Shown here in pieces: positions 1-4,992 of a stretch of DNA of 35,503 nucleotides. The notes under the pieces were generated by a model. It was not told the origin of the DNA, made no database searches, and saw nothing but the letters and a program-made list of their open reading frames with translations. Both the position numbers and the translations under genes were made by a program. The stretch lies in the IMG/VR virus record IMGVR_UViG_2896595138_000012. One strand, written 5' to 3'. The stretch comes from a virus (Duplodnaviria; Heunggongvirae; Uroviricota; Caudoviricetes). Positions within the stretch are counted from its first letter, which is position 1; each line of letters begins with the position of its first letter.

Positions 1-1002
1 TTACCCTCTATTGTCAAAAGGGTTCAATTCAACAGCAGCCTCTAAATGACCTGGAGCAAAATGCGCATAACGCATAGTCATTTTTATATCGCTATGCCCC
101 AGTATTTTTTGCAACACAAGAATATTTCCGCCCCGCATCATAAAATGACTGGCAAACGTGTGACGTAGCACATGAGTTAATTGCCCATCAGGAAGCTCGA
201 TCTTCGCTCTCTTAATTGCAGCGTCAAAAGCCTCATAACATGGTGAAAATAGCGCTCCTCGTTTTTTAGGAAGCATAGCCTGCAATTGAGGTGAAATCGG
301 TACAGTGCGGTTCTTCTTTCCTTTAGTTTTAACAAATGTGATTCGACCGGGCAGTACTTGAGATTGCTTTAATCCTTCTGCTTCACTCCACCGAGCACCA
401 GTCGCAAGCCCAATACGGACAACAACCCCCAAATCTTTATTCCGTGACTCATCACACGCAATCAGAAGGCGTTCAATCTCATCTACATACAGAAACGCCA
501 GTTCCTTTTCTTCCTCACGAAACTTGCGAATACCAGTCAGGGGGTTTTCACCAGACCACTCCCCAAGGCGCTTCAGTTCGGCAAAAACAGCATGTAGATA
601 TGACTGCTCGCGATTAACGGTTGCTTCACTAAGTTTTTTCTTCCCCTTGGGATTCCATTCTCCTGATAGCCTTCTTTCCCGATAAGTAGCAAACATATTT
701 TTGTCAAACTGAGAAGCAAATGGATCTCCCAGCCTGGAACAAATCGCCTCAAGTTTGACTTTGCGCTCTGCACCAGAGGACAAGGTTTTACCGTACATAT
801 CAAACCAACGAGCAATCAACTCAGAAAGACGAGGACCAGAACCATCTTGAAACTCGTCTCCAACTCTACTATTCATTAAACGGCGCTCATAAGAGAGCGC
901 CTCACTTTTTGTCGCAAACTGTTTACGAATGCGTTTTCCCGATGCCCCGTAGGGATAACATTCGCAAAGCCATTTACCTGATGGAATCTTACGAACCGAC
1001 AT
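1..1002 (-). CDS. int: Tyrosine site-specific integrase (P2-like phage integrase)
   Basis: 333-aa ORF; C-terminal catalytic region HVLRHTFASHF ... MTMRYAHFAP typical of tyrosine recombinases; stop codon at positions 1-3 so attL lies outside the window. Confidence 0.9.
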   Translation of the reverse strand: MSVRKIPSGKWLCECYPYGASGKRIRKQFATKSEALSYERRLMNSRVGDEFQDGSGPRLSELIARWFDMYGKTLSSGAERKVKLEAICSRLGDPFASQFDKNMFATYRERRLSGEWNPKGKKKLSEATVNREQSYLHAVFAELKRLGEWSGENPLTGIRKFREEEKELAFLYVDEIERLLIACDESRNKDLGVVVRIGLATGARWSEAEGLKQSQVLPGRITFVKTKGKKNRTVPISPQLQAMLPKKRGALFSPCYEAFDAAIKRAKIELPDGQLTHVLRHTFASHFMMRGGNILVLQKILGHSDIKMTMRYAHFAPGHLEAAVELNPFDNRG

Positions 1003-1007
1003 TTTAG

Positions 1008-1355
1008 TTACTTATCACATAAATCAAATGCAGCCTTAGTGACATCCCCCAGACTCTTTTTTAACCCTGGGGCGGCATCATTATCTAGCCAAAATGGATT
1101 ATTGTTATCTAACGGTAACGCACCAAATGTTTTACCTTTTATTCGAGCCAAACCTGTAAGCGCATATAACTTATTATCGTCAAAATTCATCACATAAGGA
1201 TTACCATCAAGACACTGTAATTGAACCTCATCAGTATTAAATGGCCATACCCCATTGAAACTCTCACGTTCAATAGTTTTAAAAGGCATTGCGACGGCGG
1301 AAAAAGAAAACATAGATAAAAAAGTAACTAATAGTTGAACCTTTTTTACTTTCAT
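1008..1355 (-). CDS. Secreted small protein, YebY/DUF2511-like
   Basis: 115 aa; N-terminal signal peptide MKVKKVQLLVTFLSMFSFSAVA; two Cys; motif W-x-FN-x-DEV-x-L-x-C-x-GN-x-YV and C-terminal LC resemble the E. coli YebY family (recalled, not searched). Confidence 0.55.
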   Translation of the reverse strand: MKVKKVQLLVTFLSMFSFSAVAMPFKTIERESFNGVWPFNTDEVQLQCLDGNPYVMNFDDNKLYALTGLARIKGKTFGALPLDNNNPFWLDNDAAPGLKKSLGDVTKAAFDLCDK

Positions 1356-1384
1356 ATCATTACCTCAATTTAGCTCAAGTAAGA

Positions 1385-2032
1385 TTACAAATTAAAAAAC
1401 ACCCTAGAAATGGCGCCGCCTACCAAAACCCCTACGCAGATAAAGAATATTATTTCTTTTGGATAAAGTCGGAGTAATTCTGAAGCACGAAGTCGGACTT
1501 CTGGTAAGGTCGAACTCTCTGTGTGGCTTGATGCCGATTGTTGCTCTAACCACGACAATGCAGACTGTAACTGAGAACGAGTAAGATCGTTTAAACGTCC
1601 TGTACCGAAATTGATATGGCAATACCGCAGAAGTTTTTGTCGAAGTCCACAGTCTTCACTGTTACGTAGTAATAAACTTACAAGAGTCTTACAGGCATCA
1701 TGATCTTTACATCGCTCAAGCATTGCATGCAGAAAACTCTCCGCTGTTTTATATTGATTTACTGTCATATCATCAATACCAGCTACACCAATCTCCGCAT
1801 GTACTTTTTGCCAAATAATAAACGCTTCAGTATTGCTAGCTTCTGCAATAGCAGCAACCAAGCTATTTAGCTCCTTACGCTGAGCCTTAAGCAAAGGGCG
1901 ATCATCATCATTATTCGAAGGGATTGCGATATTGACGGTATGAGAACCATCATATCGCTCTATCTGAATATTCTTTTCGTGAAAATCACGCCCAGCAACG
2001 CGATTGTTTGAACCGTTTGAGTTGACGGCCAT
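1385..2032 (-). CDS. Hypothetical protein with C-terminal transmembrane anchor
   Basis: 215 aa; GGAGG Shine-Dalgarno 5 nt upstream of ATG; hydrophobic C-terminal segment IIFFICVGVLVGGAISRVFF; N-terminus carries NNRVAGRDF motif shared with the two adjacent HTH proteins. Confidence 0.6.
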   Translation of the reverse strand: MAVNSNGSNNRVAGRDFHEKNIQIERYDGSHTVNIAIPSNNDDDRPLLKAQRKELNSLVAAIAEASNTEAFIIWQKVHAEIGVAGIDDMTVNQYKTAESFLHAMLERCKDHDACKTLVSLLLRNSEDCGLRQKLLRYCHINFGTGRLNDLTRSQLQSALSWLEQQSASSHTESSTLPEVRLRASELLRLYPKEIIFFICVGVLVGGAISRVFFNL

Positions 2033-2047
2033 GTCACCTCCCTACTA

Positions 2048-2452
2048 TCACCTACCCTTAGTTTCGTTATAGTCACAACCAGCGATACGGTTATTACCGC
2101 CAGAAATATTTAACTCACGTCCTGATGGCTGAGTTTCCTTTTCACTGATCGCACCTTTTAAAGCCCCGATCACCGCGTTTTTCACATCTAACGAAGCTGC
2201 TCGAAAGCGAGTAATCAACTCCTGCTCATCATCGTTATAAGTTTCAGATGAGTGAATTCCCAACACAACATACTGAACATCAAGGCCAAAACGAGACAGC
2301 GCTGCCAAATACGCAGCATCAGGAAAACTATCTCCTTTCTCATATCTAAGCTGAGTTAGCTTTTTGACTCCGCCAATGTCGCTCATAGCAACTTGACTAA
2401 GTCCCAACCTTTCCCTTTCCTCACGCAACCGCTGACCAATATCACTTTTCAT
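2048..2452 (-). CDS. XRE-family helix-turn-helix transcriptional regulator
   Basis: 134 aa; N-terminal HTH (RLREERERLGLSQVAMSDIGGVKKLTQLRYEKG); C-terminal tail NNRIAGCDYNETKGR; paralog of the next gene. Confidence 0.8.
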   Translation of the reverse strand: MKSDIGQRLREERERLGLSQVAMSDIGGVKKLTQLRYEKGDSFPDAAYLAALSRFGLDVQYVVLGIHSSETYNDDEQELITRFRAASLDVKNAVIGALKGAISEKETQPSGRELNISGGNNRIAGCDYNETKGR

Positions 2453-2478
2453 ACAAAAACCTTGACAGGTATCTTTCG

Positions 2479-2904
2479 CTAACCCTTCGTTTCATTATAG
2501 TCACGACCTGCAATACGATGGCCTTTACCTGATACGTTTACCGTATTTGATGCAGAACTACCCGCAGTCAGGGCAGCAAGAGCTGCAGCCTTTACGGCAA
2601 GCGGAGCATTTCTAAAATGCTTGATAATTTCCATCTCATCACGGTTTAGAGCACCCCCGACAGCCTCACCAGTTAGTATGTATTGGACGTTAGCCCCATT
2701 AAGCGCAAATGAGAGCAAAACATCTCCCCCAGGTACCATAGTTCCCCGTTCGTACTTCCCCCAAGATTCTCGCGATACGCCGCAAAGAGCAGCAGCATCA
2801 GCCTGTTTGAGAGATAAACGCTTTCTCTCAGCCTTCAGTCTCGCACCACAAAGAGATGAAAAATTCACTTTTATACCTTGACTAAAGAGATCTATTGATC
2901 TCAT
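2479..2904 (-). CDS. XRE-family HTH regulator, candidate immunity repressor (P2 C / 186 CI position)
   Basis: 141 aa; HTH (ARLKAERKRLSLKQADAAALCGVSRESWGKYERG); first leftward gene at the divergent/face-to-face switch with the early operon; C-terminal tail GHRIAGRDYNETKG. Confidence 0.7.
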   Translation of the reverse strand: MRSIDLFSQGIKVNFSSLCGARLKAERKRLSLKQADAAALCGVSRESWGKYERGTMVPGGDVLLSFALNGANVQYILTGEAVGGALNRDEMEIIKHFRNAPLAVKAAALAALTAGSSASNTVNVSGKGHRIAGRDYNETKG

Positions 2905-2944
2905 AATTAATTAACAAACCATTAGATGATCACAATATACCACT
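2905..2944. promoter_or_regulatory. Lysis-lysogeny switch region between repressor-like gene and early operon
   Basis: Only 40 bp, AT-rich, separate the starts of the leftward repressor-like gene and the rightward early genes; in P2/186-type phages the opposing promoters overlap the gene starts; no operator was identified. Confidence 0.3.
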
Positions 2945-3151
2945 ATGAAACAAGTTCTTCACGATACCAGATCACGCATTCCGCGTAACACCGCCGCAGG
3001 TCCAAGACTGGCACTTCGGCTGTCCATCGAGGAGCGAGCCGTCATTGATGAAATGGCAGCTAAAGAACAACGCTCATCCTCTAACATGGCGCGCATGATC
3101 TTCCTTCGCGGCCTAGAGCTAACCCAGAAAGAACAAAACAAATCTTCCTGA
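2945..3151 (+). CDS. Small early regulatory protein (possible ribbon-helix-helix DNA binder)
   Basis: 68 aa; first gene of rightward early operon; segment RLSIEERAVIDEMAAKEQRSSSNMARMIFLRG is RHH-like; weak RBS. Confidence 0.45.
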   Translation: MKQVLHDTRSRIPRNTAAGPRLALRLSIEERAVIDEMAAKEQRSSSNMARMIFLRGLELTQKEQNKSS

Positions 3152-3167
3152 TCAGGAGGCTAGTGGG

Positions 3168-3371
3168 ATGTCAGGTATAACCATCAATATCAATGTGAAT
3201 GCCCCCTATGTATCCCTGCAGAAATATGCAGAGATAACAGGTATCCCTCTTAATACATGCAAAAAGATGTTGGCTGACGGTCGAATTATTATCCGCCCCA
3301 AACGTGCCAAAATGGAAAAGCCTGAAGTAAACCTTGTGGCGATGTTAAAAGACGCTTTGGCTAACAGCTAA
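3168..3371 (+). CDS. Cox-like excisionase/early regulator
   Basis: 67 aa; AGGAGG RBS; PYVSLQKYAEITGIPLNTCKKMLADGRI resembles P2 Cox N-terminal HTH (PYQEFAKLIGKSTGAVRRMIDKGKL, recalled). Confidence 0.5.
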   Translation: MSGITININVNAPYVSLQKYAEITGIPLNTCKKMLADGRIIIRPKRAKMEKPEVNLVAMLKDALANS

Positions 3372-3392
3372 AACAATGAACAGAGCATCATC

Positions 3393-3743
3393 ATGAAAAA
3401 AAACGCTAATAATCCATACTCCAAATTTCGTAATGGCGTAGAACGCCATGTACACCACGTTGCTACCAGTGCATCACGTAGCAACATCCGCTACAGCCTG
3501 AGCGATACACACGCAACGCCGGATGGCTACCCCGTAAAACAAATCGGCGAGCACGCCTGGCTGATTGAGAAAGCTGGAATCGTAGTCCACAAATACCCAC
3601 GCAATCCGTTTACCGGAAACCGCATTTTTGCTCTGAGCTGCGGCGACAATCAGTTCGGGCAGGATTTCACGTTGTACGAAGCGCTACGCACAGTTGATCG
3701 CCTTCTTTACGGAGAAAATTTTATTAAACAGGCTGAGTTATAA
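3393..3743 (+). CDS. Hypothetical early protein
   Basis: 116-aa ORF in early operon, protein-like composition. Confidence 0.55.
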   Translation: MKKNANNPYSKFRNGVERHVHHVATSASRSNIRYSLSDTHATPDGYPVKQIGEHAWLIEKAGIVVHKYPRNPFTGNRIFALSCGDNQFGQDFTLYEALRTVDRLLYGENFIKQAEL

Positions 3744-3784: not shown

Positions 3785-4027
3785 ATGAGAAAACACACAG
3801 CAGAACAGGTAAACGAATTTCTGCAGGGATATTACTTCGATAACGAAATTAATCCCCGCGCCAGAAAAACACACTTCGAAGTAATGAAGTGCGGAATATT
3901 CAGCGTCCGCAACACCCTGTTTTGTTCAAAAGATACGGGAGCCAGCGAGGACCTTAAAGAACTTAACCGGATGGCGAAACAATTAATGGATGGCATGGTT
4001 CCCGAACCCGCAATAATTACGGAGTAA
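3785..4027 (+). CDS. Hypothetical early protein
   Basis: 80-aa ORF with GAGGA RBS. Confidence 0.55.
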   Translation: MRKHTAEQVNEFLQGYYFDNEINPRARKTHFEVMKCGIFSVRNTLFCSKDTGASEDLKELNRMAKQLMDGMVPEPAIITE

Positions 4028-4032
4028 TCACG

Positions 4033-4218
4033 ATGAATTTCAGTTATTCATTCAGTGTACCGGAGTCGTTATTTGTTATCACACTGATTGCAGCCGCAAT
4101 GTTTTTTGCCATCTGCATACTGACACTTATTGATACATGGCGGGAAATACGCGACAGACGTCGCCAGAAAAAAAACGGGATGCATACAACGCATTCATTC
4201 AGCACAAAGAAGACGTAG
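4033..4218 (+). CDS. Small single-pass membrane protein
   Basis: 61 aa; GGAG RBS; hydrophobic helix VITLIAAAMFFAICILTLI followed by basic tail. Confidence 0.45.
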   Translation: MNFSYSFSVPESLFVITLIAAAMFFAICILTLIDTWREIRDRRRQKKNGMHTTHSFSTKKT

Positions 4219-4315
4219 AGCGTAAAGCACGCCGCCGTCTTTAGTTAATTAACCGGTTTCGTTAATACACCGCTCACGCGGCGGGATTCGCACAATCTGA
4301 ATAAGGGAAATAAAA

Positions 4316-4738
4316 ATGATTAATCCGACACTCACCCTCAAAGATAAAGCCCTTGCGGGCGCAATGTTTTTACGCAACTACGCCGCAATGATGGCTGACA
4401 CTGACAACCCGATTATGGTGCTGTCAGTGGAGCCTCACCTTATCGCCGCAGACGCAATTGAACAGGTGGTACAGGAAAACACCTGTCTGAGAAATCAGCT
4501 TGCCACCCTTCAGACAGCAGCTGACCCGGCAAAGGAAAGTGCTGAACACACCTGCCACACCACATTCATCAAAGGGACCCGCGTATGTCTGAAAAACAGT
4601 CCGCAGCAACGCGGAACGGTCGTTGACACCCGCACCAGTAGCCCCGCCATTGACCGGGTTTTCGTCCGTTTCGATTCCCCCTTCGAGGAAGACCGCCGGG
4701 TAAAGACCAGAAACCTGGAAATAACCCCCGACAAATGA
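4316..4738 (+). CDS. Hypothetical early protein
   Basis: 140-aa ORF; stop overlaps next start. Confidence 0.6.
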   Translation: MINPTLTLKDKALAGAMFLRNYAAMMADTDNPIMVLSVEPHLIAADAIEQVVQENTCLRNQLATLQTAADPAKESAEHTCHTTFIKGTRVCLKNSPQQRGTVVDTRTSSPAIDRVFVRFDSPFEEDRRVKTRNLEITPDK

Positions 4739-4992
4739 AGCTGATTATCCCTGCGCGACACCGCAAAAACCGGATGAAGCCAGGGGGAAAGCCGGAGCGG
4801 GCAGCAAGGGCGGCATACCGTCGCCTGCTGAAGGGGGACCGGTCACACGTGCGACGGCTGGAGCGGGTACCGCCCGCCCGCGTCATCAACGTCATGTACC
4901 GTTACCGGCTGTTAAGTCTGGACGAAGGCCGGACATGGGTACTGCTTAACCATAACGAATACGTGAAGAGGATAAGACGATGTTACAGATGA
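4735..4992 (+). CDS. Hypothetical basic protein
   Basis: 85 aa, arginine-rich; start overlaps upstream stop (operon coupling). Confidence 0.5.
   Translation: MKLIIPARHRKNRMKPGGKPERAARAAYRRLLKGDRSHVRRLERVPPARVINVMYRYRLLSLDEGRTWVLLNHNEYVKRIRRCYR

Follow-up and report, generated by a model that had tools for sequence, protein, structure and literature searches.

The window considered in this report is the whole stretch of 35,503 nucleotides of IMG/VR record IMGVR_UViG_2896595138_000012, a P2-like prophage, in which the region 1008-2032 lies between the integrase gene (int) and two genes for helix-turn-helix (HTH) proteins at the position of the immunity repressor. A preliminary description had placed two leftward open reading frames (ORFs) in this region, and both are present there. 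The int-proximal gene encodes a YebY-like protein. The HTH-proximal gene encodes a 215-aa protein predicted to be held in the inner membrane by its C-terminus, and a motif near its N-terminus (VNSNGSNNRVAGRDFHE) has similar counterparts in the C-terminal tails of the two HTH proteins (LNISGGNNRIAGCDYNE and VNVSGKGHRIAGRDYNE). The motif differs among lineages and matches within each pair of neighboring genes; the 215-aa protein is proposed here to be a conserved membrane partner of the prophage immunity repressor.

A Terminal Motif Shared by Adjacent Gene Products

The features that bear on the proposed pairing, all of which are on the minus strand, are as follows.

1976..2026, minus strand: N-terminal tail motif of the 215-aa protein (residues 3-19, VNSNGSNNRVAGRDFHE), in a low-confidence tail of residues 1-38
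2063..2113, minus strand: C-terminal tail motif of HTH1 (LNISGGNNRIAGCDYNE), with an Arg-to-Cys change at an otherwise invariant Arg
2491..2541, minus strand: HTH2 motif near the C-terminus (VNVSGKGHRIAGRDYNE), part of a tail (residues 118-141) predicted to be disordered
2048..2452, minus strand: HTH1, a 134-aa XRE-type protein at the repressor position, of the O26-prophage type (HTH_31, HTH_19, HTH_3, and repressor PHROGs)
2479..2904, minus strand: HTH2, XRE-type, 141 aa, a putative repressor belonging to a second immunity type and carried by a 418-bp insertion (HTH_31, 35.1 bits)
1385..2032, minus strand: Flk_N-domain protein of 215 aa, predicted to be C-tail-anchored and to face the cytoplasm (phrog_5825, E 1e-102; AlphaFold2 [AF2] model)
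1526..1900, minus strand: two predicted helical Flk_N-type modules, residues 45-109 and 111-169 (AF2 predicted local distance difference test score [pLDDT] 75-92)
1394..1462, minus strand: predicted C-terminal hydrophobic anchor, residues 191-213, PKEIIFFICVGVLVGGAISRVFF (hydropathy maximum, AF2 helix)

The motif occurs just three times in the window, namely at the head of the 215-aa protein and in the tails of HTH1 and HTH2, and residues N10, R11, G14, R15, D16, and E19 of the 215-aa protein are invariant in the alignment of the partner (A1). HTH1 and the 215-aa protein share nine residues of the motif, seven of which are encoded by different codons, and their nucleotide identity over the motif is 55%; the similarity is therefore kept at the protein level and not by DNA exchange. 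Of 120 HTH2 homologs, 101 terminate in the motif.

Gene conversion between the motif copies was rejected in view of nucleotide identities of 55-63% and of the different codons used for most shared residues. Fission of an ancestral HTH-Flk_N fusion gene was rejected as well: the corresponding genes of Ralstonia phage YO027_3 are convergent yet share a different motif, and protein-level conservation of the motif with different codons also counters fission. No fusion of an HTH domain with Flk_N stood out among the 134 representatives of the 215-aa protein family, a check in which the N-terminal 48 residues were inspected by eye, a few proteins were scanned against Pfam, and not all of the 134 were scanned for HTH domains. 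Nine motif matches in P0247 (2754 aa), a eukaryotic Ig-repeat protein, were rejected as chance, and wider pattern scans with two single proteins found nothing.

Linkage of the Two Genes and Covariation of the Motif

Of 99 related enterobacterial loci, 98 have the 215-aa gene as the immediate downstream neighbor of the repressor-position HTH gene, typically after a gap of 9-15 nt, and both motifs, C-terminal in the HTH protein and N-terminal in its partner, are likewise present in 98 of the 99. The linkage spans E. coli, Klebsiella, Erwinia, Hafnia, Arsenophonus, prophages with Mu-like gene sets, and Ralstonia phages; the Mu-like gene sets include an rve transposase (loci L107 and L111), a DUF3102 gene, and an HTH gene at the position of the Mu repressor. 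Because of this linkage, of the recurrence in unrelated phage types, and of the co-varying motif shared with the HTH protein, the 215-aa gene is not variable cargo, and its preliminary description as a moron is not sustained. Nor is it a P2 core gene: in a tblastn search of 50,697 phage records, the 215-aa protein and the YebY-like protein were each found in one E. coli phage only, with additional distant Ralstonia matches for the 215-aa protein, and neither belongs to the core gene set of the P2 family.

Motifs of different lineages differ from one another and match inside each HTH-partner pair, as illustrated by the following loci, for which the two members of each pair are given.

L101: NNVQIGSV / GNVQIGKV
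L105: GDIFGRDL / GDVAGRDI
L106: QQFNGPVGTVTTGDVVN / QQFHGAVEQVAAGDIKN
L107: GDVLGNVIKGDVTM / GDVGNVVSGDVTI
L109: QVFNAEVGQAIRAKTLKQ / QEFNEPVGQVIQAETVTQ

Cognate scores exceeded those of shuffled sequences with z values of 5.4-12.1, and the true pairing was the best of 720 permutations of six independent lineages. Furthermore, the first 35 residues of the partner were compared, locus by locus, with the last 40 residues of each ORF on both strands. In 12 of 13 loci the best match came from the HTH gene, and for further loci of another motif class this was so in 27 of 28, the lone miss among the latter being a locus in which the upstream gene is cut by the contig end. The tails are modular, in that homologous HTH domains bear different tails. 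Moreover, three tails were chosen before their neighbors had been seen, and the downstream protein opened with the corresponding motif in all three cases. In one of these, from Gilliamella, the partner is a multi-transmembrane protein without an Flk_N domain, and the features that the partners have in common are therefore the motif and membrane anchoring.

In Ralstonia phage YO107_2 (L105), a third consecutive gene (3226-3705) also opens with the motif of the pair (MNRQDFHGPVGQVAGRDIINI...) and its product has a hydrophobic C-terminal stretch; one repressor tail may thus address several membrane partners. At the locus of the family member P0194 (L108, 2501-3310), the protein carries a G/V-rich N-terminal motif (IAGDVGVVAHGSVTIHGG), and a matching C-terminus is absent from all ORFs of the 5.8-kb locus; this locus is either an exception to the pairing rule or one whose partner is encoded elsewhere.

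Architecture and Relatives of the 215-aa Protein

The only strongly hydrophobic stretch of the 215-aa protein is its extreme C-terminus (KD15 maximum 2.87 at residues 194-208), which the AF2 model folds as a helix of residues 191-213 and which is kept hydrophobic across the family. A Shine-Dalgarno sequence (GGGAGGTG) is located 4-5 nt ahead of the ATG. Both the single C-terminal hydrophobic helix and the strong ribosome-binding site of the preliminary description are borne out.

Sequence searches, among them the profile searches that the same description had recommended for both proteins, connected the 215-aa protein with Flk (and the YebY-like protein with DUF2511 and the YebY structure 7N0J, as described below). 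The NCBIfam Flk model (NF007987/PRK10715) matches partially (E 1.7e-15, 57.2 bits, far under the cutoff of 353), with residues 39-165 aligned to model positions 23-149 of 339, which falls short of a full-length match. PF27202 (Flk_N) is precomputed for P0001, a protein 99% identical to that of the window, and for nearly all homologs; the Pfam scan of the window protein itself did not report PF27202, and the inclusion of this model in the Pfam copy used is uncertain. Flk is a C-tail-anchored protein (PMC13344023) that interacts with the cytoplasmic domain of FlhA (FlhA-C) in two-hybrid assays and has been proposed to keep FlhA-C in one state for as long as Flk itself is not removed.

The family of the 215-aa protein is small, with 134 representatives at 50% identity among 1.84 billion proteins, and it is very common in Klebsiella prophages (P0098, 754 contigs). 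The Flk_N modules have weak links to antirepressor-type proteins, namely phrog_245 and an ORF6C protein in BFVD. A natural fusion, P0225 (270 aa), provides a further such link: it has both a Phage_pRha DNA-binding domain and an Flk_N-like helical module, and so ties the module to Rha/Ant-type regulators. A Foldseek search of the AF2 model gave no significant match in the PDB and only the weak ORF6C match in BFVD, and a sequence-profile search of the PDB with the 215-aa family found nothing. With PADLOC models, neither the YebY-like nor the 215-aa protein gave a match; the earlier statement that no described system is recognized stands in this respect, although it had overlooked the Flk_N homology and the shared motif.

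A Possible Coupling of the Repressor to a Membrane Partner

The matched termini are predicted to be flexible. In the AF2 models, pLDDT is below 50 at residues 1-27 and 31-38 of the 215-aa protein, whose head contains only short strands (residues 22-26 and 32-36), and at residues 118-141 of HTH2; the Flk_N modules of the former, and the HTH domain and the two following helices of the latter, are modeled with confidence. In matched segments taken from nine lineages, Q (2.6x), N (2.5x), G (2.0x), V (1.95x), and I (1.5x) are over-represented and L (0.10x), P (0.26x), and K (0.54x) are under-represented, and composition played no part in finding them. The same bias, with Q, N, G, V, and I raised and K, P, and L lowered, has been published for bacterial amyloid-signaling sequences (BASS). 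The matched stretch of the enterobacterial pairs is about 17 residues long, that of the FHGxVGQ class consists of two units and has a length of 23-25 residues, and one family member (P0161, 290 aa) carries two tandem copies of the N-terminal motif, like pseudo-repeats of the HET-s type. In every repressor tail, the motif is directly followed by a K/R-rich cluster (NENKK, KKKGK, NKNTKRK, GVKRKR, GGKKKQ, and others; in the window, for example, at 2479-2493 in HTH2 and 2048-2062 in HTH1), which could contact acidic membrane lipids or DNA.

Amyloid-signaling pairs have been discovered by a signature in which neighboring genes encode a co-varying peptide, placed C-terminally in one product and N-terminally in the other, and the Bab/Agp pair (BASS11) of an E. 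coli prophage defense island signals through such a shared C-terminal/N-terminal amyloid motif. Because of this signature and of the Bab/Agp precedent in an E. coli prophage, direct association of the tails, by which the repressor would be coupled to its inner-membrane partner, is considered the best explanation of the data, and a moderately probable one. The partner would face the cytoplasm, held in the inner membrane via its C-terminal anchor and carrying two helical Flk_N modules, and about 17 residues of its flexible head repeat the flexible C-terminal tail of the repressor or repressors encoded just upstream. Head and tail may bind each other by homotypic β-strand or cross-β pairing, as in amyloid-signaling motif pairs, such that some of the repressor molecules would be tethered to the membrane-anchored protein or templated by it. 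The state of the partner could then set repressor activity and thereby immunity, induction, or the lysis-lysogeny decision. From the sequence patterns above we infer the physical interaction itself, its cross-β nature, and the direction of signaling.

A stronger version of this proposal is put forward tentatively and is doubtful at present: prion-like cross-β templating would operate between the membrane-anchored protein and its own immunity repressor in several temperate phage families of Proteobacteria, covering P2-like prophages and prophages with Mu-like gene sets. A membrane-level event might convert the motif of the partner, which would template the repressor tail, and the repressor would be removed (or assembled). 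If so, this would represent a route independent of the SOS response by which the lysogeny switch is flipped, and the first amyloid-signaling pathway with a transcription factor, rather than a cell-death effector, as its output.

Several points weigh against the direct-association proposal. A Pfam scan of 10 tails at E values up to 10 yielded no amyloid-motif family (RHIM, HET-s, PP, or sigma), the enterobacterial motif carries a fair amount of charge (R, R, D, E), and its repressor copy has about 17 residues vs. the approximately 25 typical of BASS. Where known pairs have an NLR-type sensor and a Bell/HeLo executioner, this one consists of an XRE HTH protein and a tail-anchored Flk_N protein, neither of which is of those types. 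Since the partner domains differ, no described motif is matched, and the enterobacterial motif is short and charged, membership in the amyloid-signaling family is not established by the sequences. Furthermore, one locus with an Flk_N-family gene (L108) has no matching HTH neighbor, and the HTH proteins are named immunity repressors by synteny alone. Finally, both genes appear to be constitutively co-expressed, and a trigger must therefore exist.

The literature found contains no description of the gene pair or of amyloid-type motifs on phage repressors; its coverage is incomplete and the novelty is provisional. Pairs of matched terminal motifs are already known, and it is the context of a repressor and its membrane partner that provisionally appears new. 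If the tails do pair, they would add to the lysogeny switch a widespread level of control that has been overlooked and that uses a lineage-specific peptide code, and would offer a candidate for how prophages with relatives not inducible by the SOS response (P2) sense the state of the cell. Amyloid-type motifs would also be extended from cell-death immunity to transcriptional control, and the tails, being modular and co-varying, might find use as orthogonal interaction tags.

Alternative Explanations

A third factor, such as a protease or its adaptor, a chaperone, or a phage antirepressor, might instead recognize the shared motif as a tag, and the two proteins would then be co-regulated or would compete as decoy or buffer without contact. 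Exposed disordered termini are the usual location of degrons and short linear motifs, all repressor tails close in a basic cluster, and ClpXP controls the repressor of Mu by way of its C-terminal tail, all of which would suit such a tag. However, the motif changes wholly between lineages yet matches in pairs, so that each lineage would need its own co-varying factor; conservation across the hosts applies to their proteases and not to the motif, and the window is without a third motif-bearing or obviously co-varying gene. Recognition by a third factor is hence regarded as unlikely.

Somewhat less likely still is an addiction or abortive-infection module, in which the repressor tail would restrain a potentially toxic membrane effector, and loss or titration of the repressor would free or template the effector and lead to membrane damage. 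It is consistent with this explanation that the feature common to the partners is membrane anchoring and not Flk_N, as the Gilliamella partner indicates, that the third motif gene of L105 likewise ends in a hydrophobic stretch, that the amyloid-controlled output of HET-S and Bab is a membrane-targeting killer, and that pairs of an HTH protein and a small membrane protein resemble toxin-antitoxin layouts. By contrast, in the AF2 model the Flk_N modules are helical bundles of a soluble type that lack pore-like features and are followed by one short tail anchor, no PADLOC match was obtained, and the HTH gene occupies the immunity-repressor position in P2-like prophages and in those with Mu-like gene sets. 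In addition, known executioners carry the motif C-terminally, whereas the membrane protein carries it N-terminally here.

According to the preliminary description, both genes would be independent lysogenic-conversion or superinfection-exclusion morons without a link to the repressor. Both are AT-rich, located between repressor and int, and missing from nearly all deposited P2-like phages, and this explanation holds for the YebY-like gene. For the two genes together it is very unlikely, as the 215-aa gene was never exchanged (98 of 99 loci), follows the HTH gene in unrelated phage types, and encodes a co-varying terminal motif shared with the HTH protein, and conservation and covariation already contradict it.

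The least likely explanation is that the 215-aa protein is a phage-borne mimic of Flk that acts on the flagellar type III export gate (FlhA/FlhB) and alters flagellation, for while it has homology to the N-terminal part of Flk (E 1.7e-15, PF27202) and the same C-tail-anchored topology, and Flk itself interacts with FlhA-C in two-hybrid assays, the score is 57 bits vs. an equivalog cutoff of 353, the family is very common in prophages of the classically non-flagellate Klebsiella (P0098, 754 contigs), true Flk proteins are without the N-terminal motif, and one lineage has a membrane protein without Flk_N as the partner instead.

Locus Layout and the Two Repressor-Type Genes

The leftward block runs from HTH2 (2479-2904) through HTH1 (2048-2452), the 215-aa gene, and the YebY-like gene to int (1-1002), beyond which yecA adjoins in relatives. 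It opposes rightward early genes, first an Arc-like and then a Cox-like gene, as listed below.

1..1002, minus strand: tyrosine integrase, the final gene of the leftward block (Int_N and Phage_integrase domains)
2945..3371, plus strand: rightward early genes defining the switch region, Arc-like at 2945-3151 (phrog_3431) and Cox-like at 3168-3371 (phrog_575)

A promoter-like site is located at 2878-2907 on the plus strand. A promoter and terminator scan of the leftward block revealed no internal signal above chance, except for one weak terminator-like site inside the anchor-coding part of the 215-aa gene. In P2, C and int are transcribed together from Pc, with int in the distal position, and because of this analogy the genes of the leftward block are all expected to be expressed in the lysogen.

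Phage 520873 (Peduoviridae, genus Xuanwuvirus) is 98% identical across the part of window 1-3400 that aligns, and at least 80% of window 1-3400 is found in about 505 of 5426 complete E. coli genomes (~9%). The AT-richness noted in the preliminary description is evident: the guanine-plus-cytosine (GC) content is 0.356 for the YebY-like gene, 0.414 for the 215-aa gene, and 0.391 for region 1008-2032 vs. 0.522 for the window (39.1% vs. 52.2%), and this region ranks second lowest among 345 sliding windows of 1025 bp. As regards the early genes, RefSeq gives a 45-aa hypothetical protein (L001, 5545-5682) antisense to the Arc-like ORF (window 2945-3151, plus strand). The Arc-like ORF has a PHROGs match at E 8e-28 and is probably the real gene, overlooked in many E. 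coli annotations.

The window prophage contains two tandem repressor-type genes of different immunity types. HTH1 is the sole HTH gene of the common O26-type prophage, where it belongs to the leftward block facing the rightward Cox-like gene. HTH2 is of the repressor type of locus L007, with 86% DNA identity over 2482-3682, and is carried, relative to the common O26-type prophage, by a 418-bp insertion (window 2477-2894). The junction of this insertion was met with in no complete E. coli genome, out of 5426, and its only other occurrence is on one IMG/VR contig (L021). The sole DNA similarity between HTH2 of the window and the HTH1 gene of the O26 prophage is a stretch of 36 bp that encodes the tail motif, and this stretch is a possible point of recombination. 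The HTH1 tail of the window (RIAGCDY, 2069-2089) has Cys where nearly all other copies have Arg, a change limited to the two double-repressor loci, and with HTH2 in place the coupling of HTH1 to the partner may be decaying. An Arsenophonus locus (L019) likewise has two tail-bearing HTH genes. Assignment of both HTH proteins as immunity repressors is drawn from their position, and a review of P2-like switch regions describes C-type and CI-type repressors in addition to "less common" regions only.

The YebY-Like Gene and the Int-Proximal Slot

The features of the int-proximal gene are as follows.

1008..1355, minus strand: secreted YebY/DUF2511 protein of 115 aa, variable cargo (moron) (Pfam, PDB 7N0J, slot variability)
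1290..1355, minus strand: predicted Sec signal peptide, residues 1-22, MKVKKVQLLVTFLSMFSFSAVA (sequence features and hydropathy)

The signal peptide and the YebY/DUF2511 features that had been read from the sequence are both upheld. The 115-aa protein matches Pfam DUF2511 (PF10709) with 28.4 bits vs. a gathering score of 21, matches phrog_2950 (E 9e-40), and aligns with the structure of E. coli YebY, 7N0J (phmmer E 0.0027), a distant relationship in which Trp37, Cys48, and Cys113 occupy the positions of the conserved Trp and the disulfide. Proteins of the YebY family are periplasmic and have a conserved Trp and a two-Cys disulfide (PMC8689200). Residues 1-22 comprise a basic n-region, a hydrophobic core at the hydropathy peak, and an A-V-A end of the cleavage type, as predicted for a signal peptide.

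Comparison of the same locus across relatives, which had been suggested as a check of cargo variability, located this variability in the slot between the 215-aa gene and int, where at least 10 unrelated protein families are found over 91 related loci: DUF2511 in 46, BRCT-domain proteins in 16, acidic DUF8087 in 11, TerB-like proteins in 5 (a weak likeness, under the Pfam cutoff), several others, and no gene at all in 4. The YebY gene of Erwinia has the HTH gene on one side and the 215-aa gene on the other. The YebY-like gene is identified as a moron because the slot is variable, the gene is rare in deposited phages, and its place differs in Erwinia, and the earlier moron proposal is thus retained for this gene and not for the 215-aa gene. 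It is regarded as an independent, exchangeable moron encoding a small disulfide-bonded periplasmic protein, and it would be co-transcribed with the repressor operon. The protein probably acts at the envelope, and a periplasmic binding or protective role, by analogy with MlbQ, is a best guess of low confidence. The occurrence of yebY homologs beside a recombinase gene and a CI-type HTH gene in Enterobacteriaceae has already been noted (PMC8689200).

Among the other slot contents, the BRCT protein (288-295 aa, N-terminal BRCT) occurs at L003 (5647-6513), at L084 (6648-7535), and in 14 further loci of Klebsiella/Enterobacter-type prophages. At L106, a TIR_2 protein is encoded at 3990-4862, two genes downstream of the partner gene, and the stretch read there is without an integrase gene. 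Repressor-partner operons may be hotspots for defense-like cargo, and the int-proximal slot (YebY-like, BRCT, and DUF8087 proteins, with a TIR-domain gene just downstream at a related locus) is a cargo hotspot worth mining.

Comparison With Known Systems

The YebY-like protein shares the DUF2511 fold family, the signal peptide, and the positions of Trp37 and Cys48-Cys113 with YebY of the E. coli AZY operon and with MlbQ, a lantibiotic self-resistance protein. The copC-copD-yebY (AZY) context of yebY has no match here, where the gene is flanked by int and the Flk_N gene.

For the 215-aa protein, Flk (Fluke/RflH), the inhibitor of the flagellar export switch in Salmonella and E. coli, has Flk_N-type helical modules and a C-terminal anchor that leaves it facing the cytoplasm, both of which are predicted features of the phage protein, and the hold that Flk has been proposed to exert on its cytoplasmic partner FlhA-C, kept in one state, resembles the role suggested here. 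Flk is longer (333 vs. 215 aa, the phage protein being about two-thirds of its length), the phage protein scores far below the equivalog level, and Flk is without the N-terminal motif, whereas the phage protein has the motif and a prophage position beside the repressor. Phage regulators of the Rha/Ant type with ORF6C-like C-terminal modules show likenesses to the Flk_N modules in sequence (phrog_245, "anti-repressor Ant") and in fold (ORF6C) that are weak (E 4e-3 and 2e-3, low TM-score), and these proteins are soluble and have neither the tail motif nor a membrane anchor.

Among repressor operons, those of lambda (cI-rexA-rexB) and P2 (C-int) are alike in carrying extra genes, a membrane protein among them. 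The Rex proteins have no homology to the proteins described here and are not known to share a motif with CI; the membrane protein of the window appears, from its terminal peptide, to be physically matched to the repressor. Control of a cytoplasmic DNA-binding regulator through tethering to an inner-membrane protein is exemplified by Mlc-PtsG and RseA-sigmaE, in which tethering is the outcome proposed here, although the families are unrelated and the partners are not known to use identical terminal peptides.

The amyloid-signaling pairs (BASS Bell/NLR, Bab/Agp, and fungal HET-S/NWD2) differ in their domains, as the protein with the C-terminal motif is a Bell/HeLo membrane executioner there and an HTH repressor here, and the protein with the N-terminal motif is an NLR/TPR sensor there and a small tail-anchored Flk_N protein here; the tails described here fit no described motif family, and the enterobacterial motif is shorter and more charged. 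Common to both are a C-terminal and an N-terminal motif on the products of adjacent genes, variation of the motif by family with a match inside the pair, flexible termini, modularity, and a composition rich in Q/N/G/V/I and poor in L/P/K, and the Bab/Agp pair, as here, is located in an E. coli prophage.

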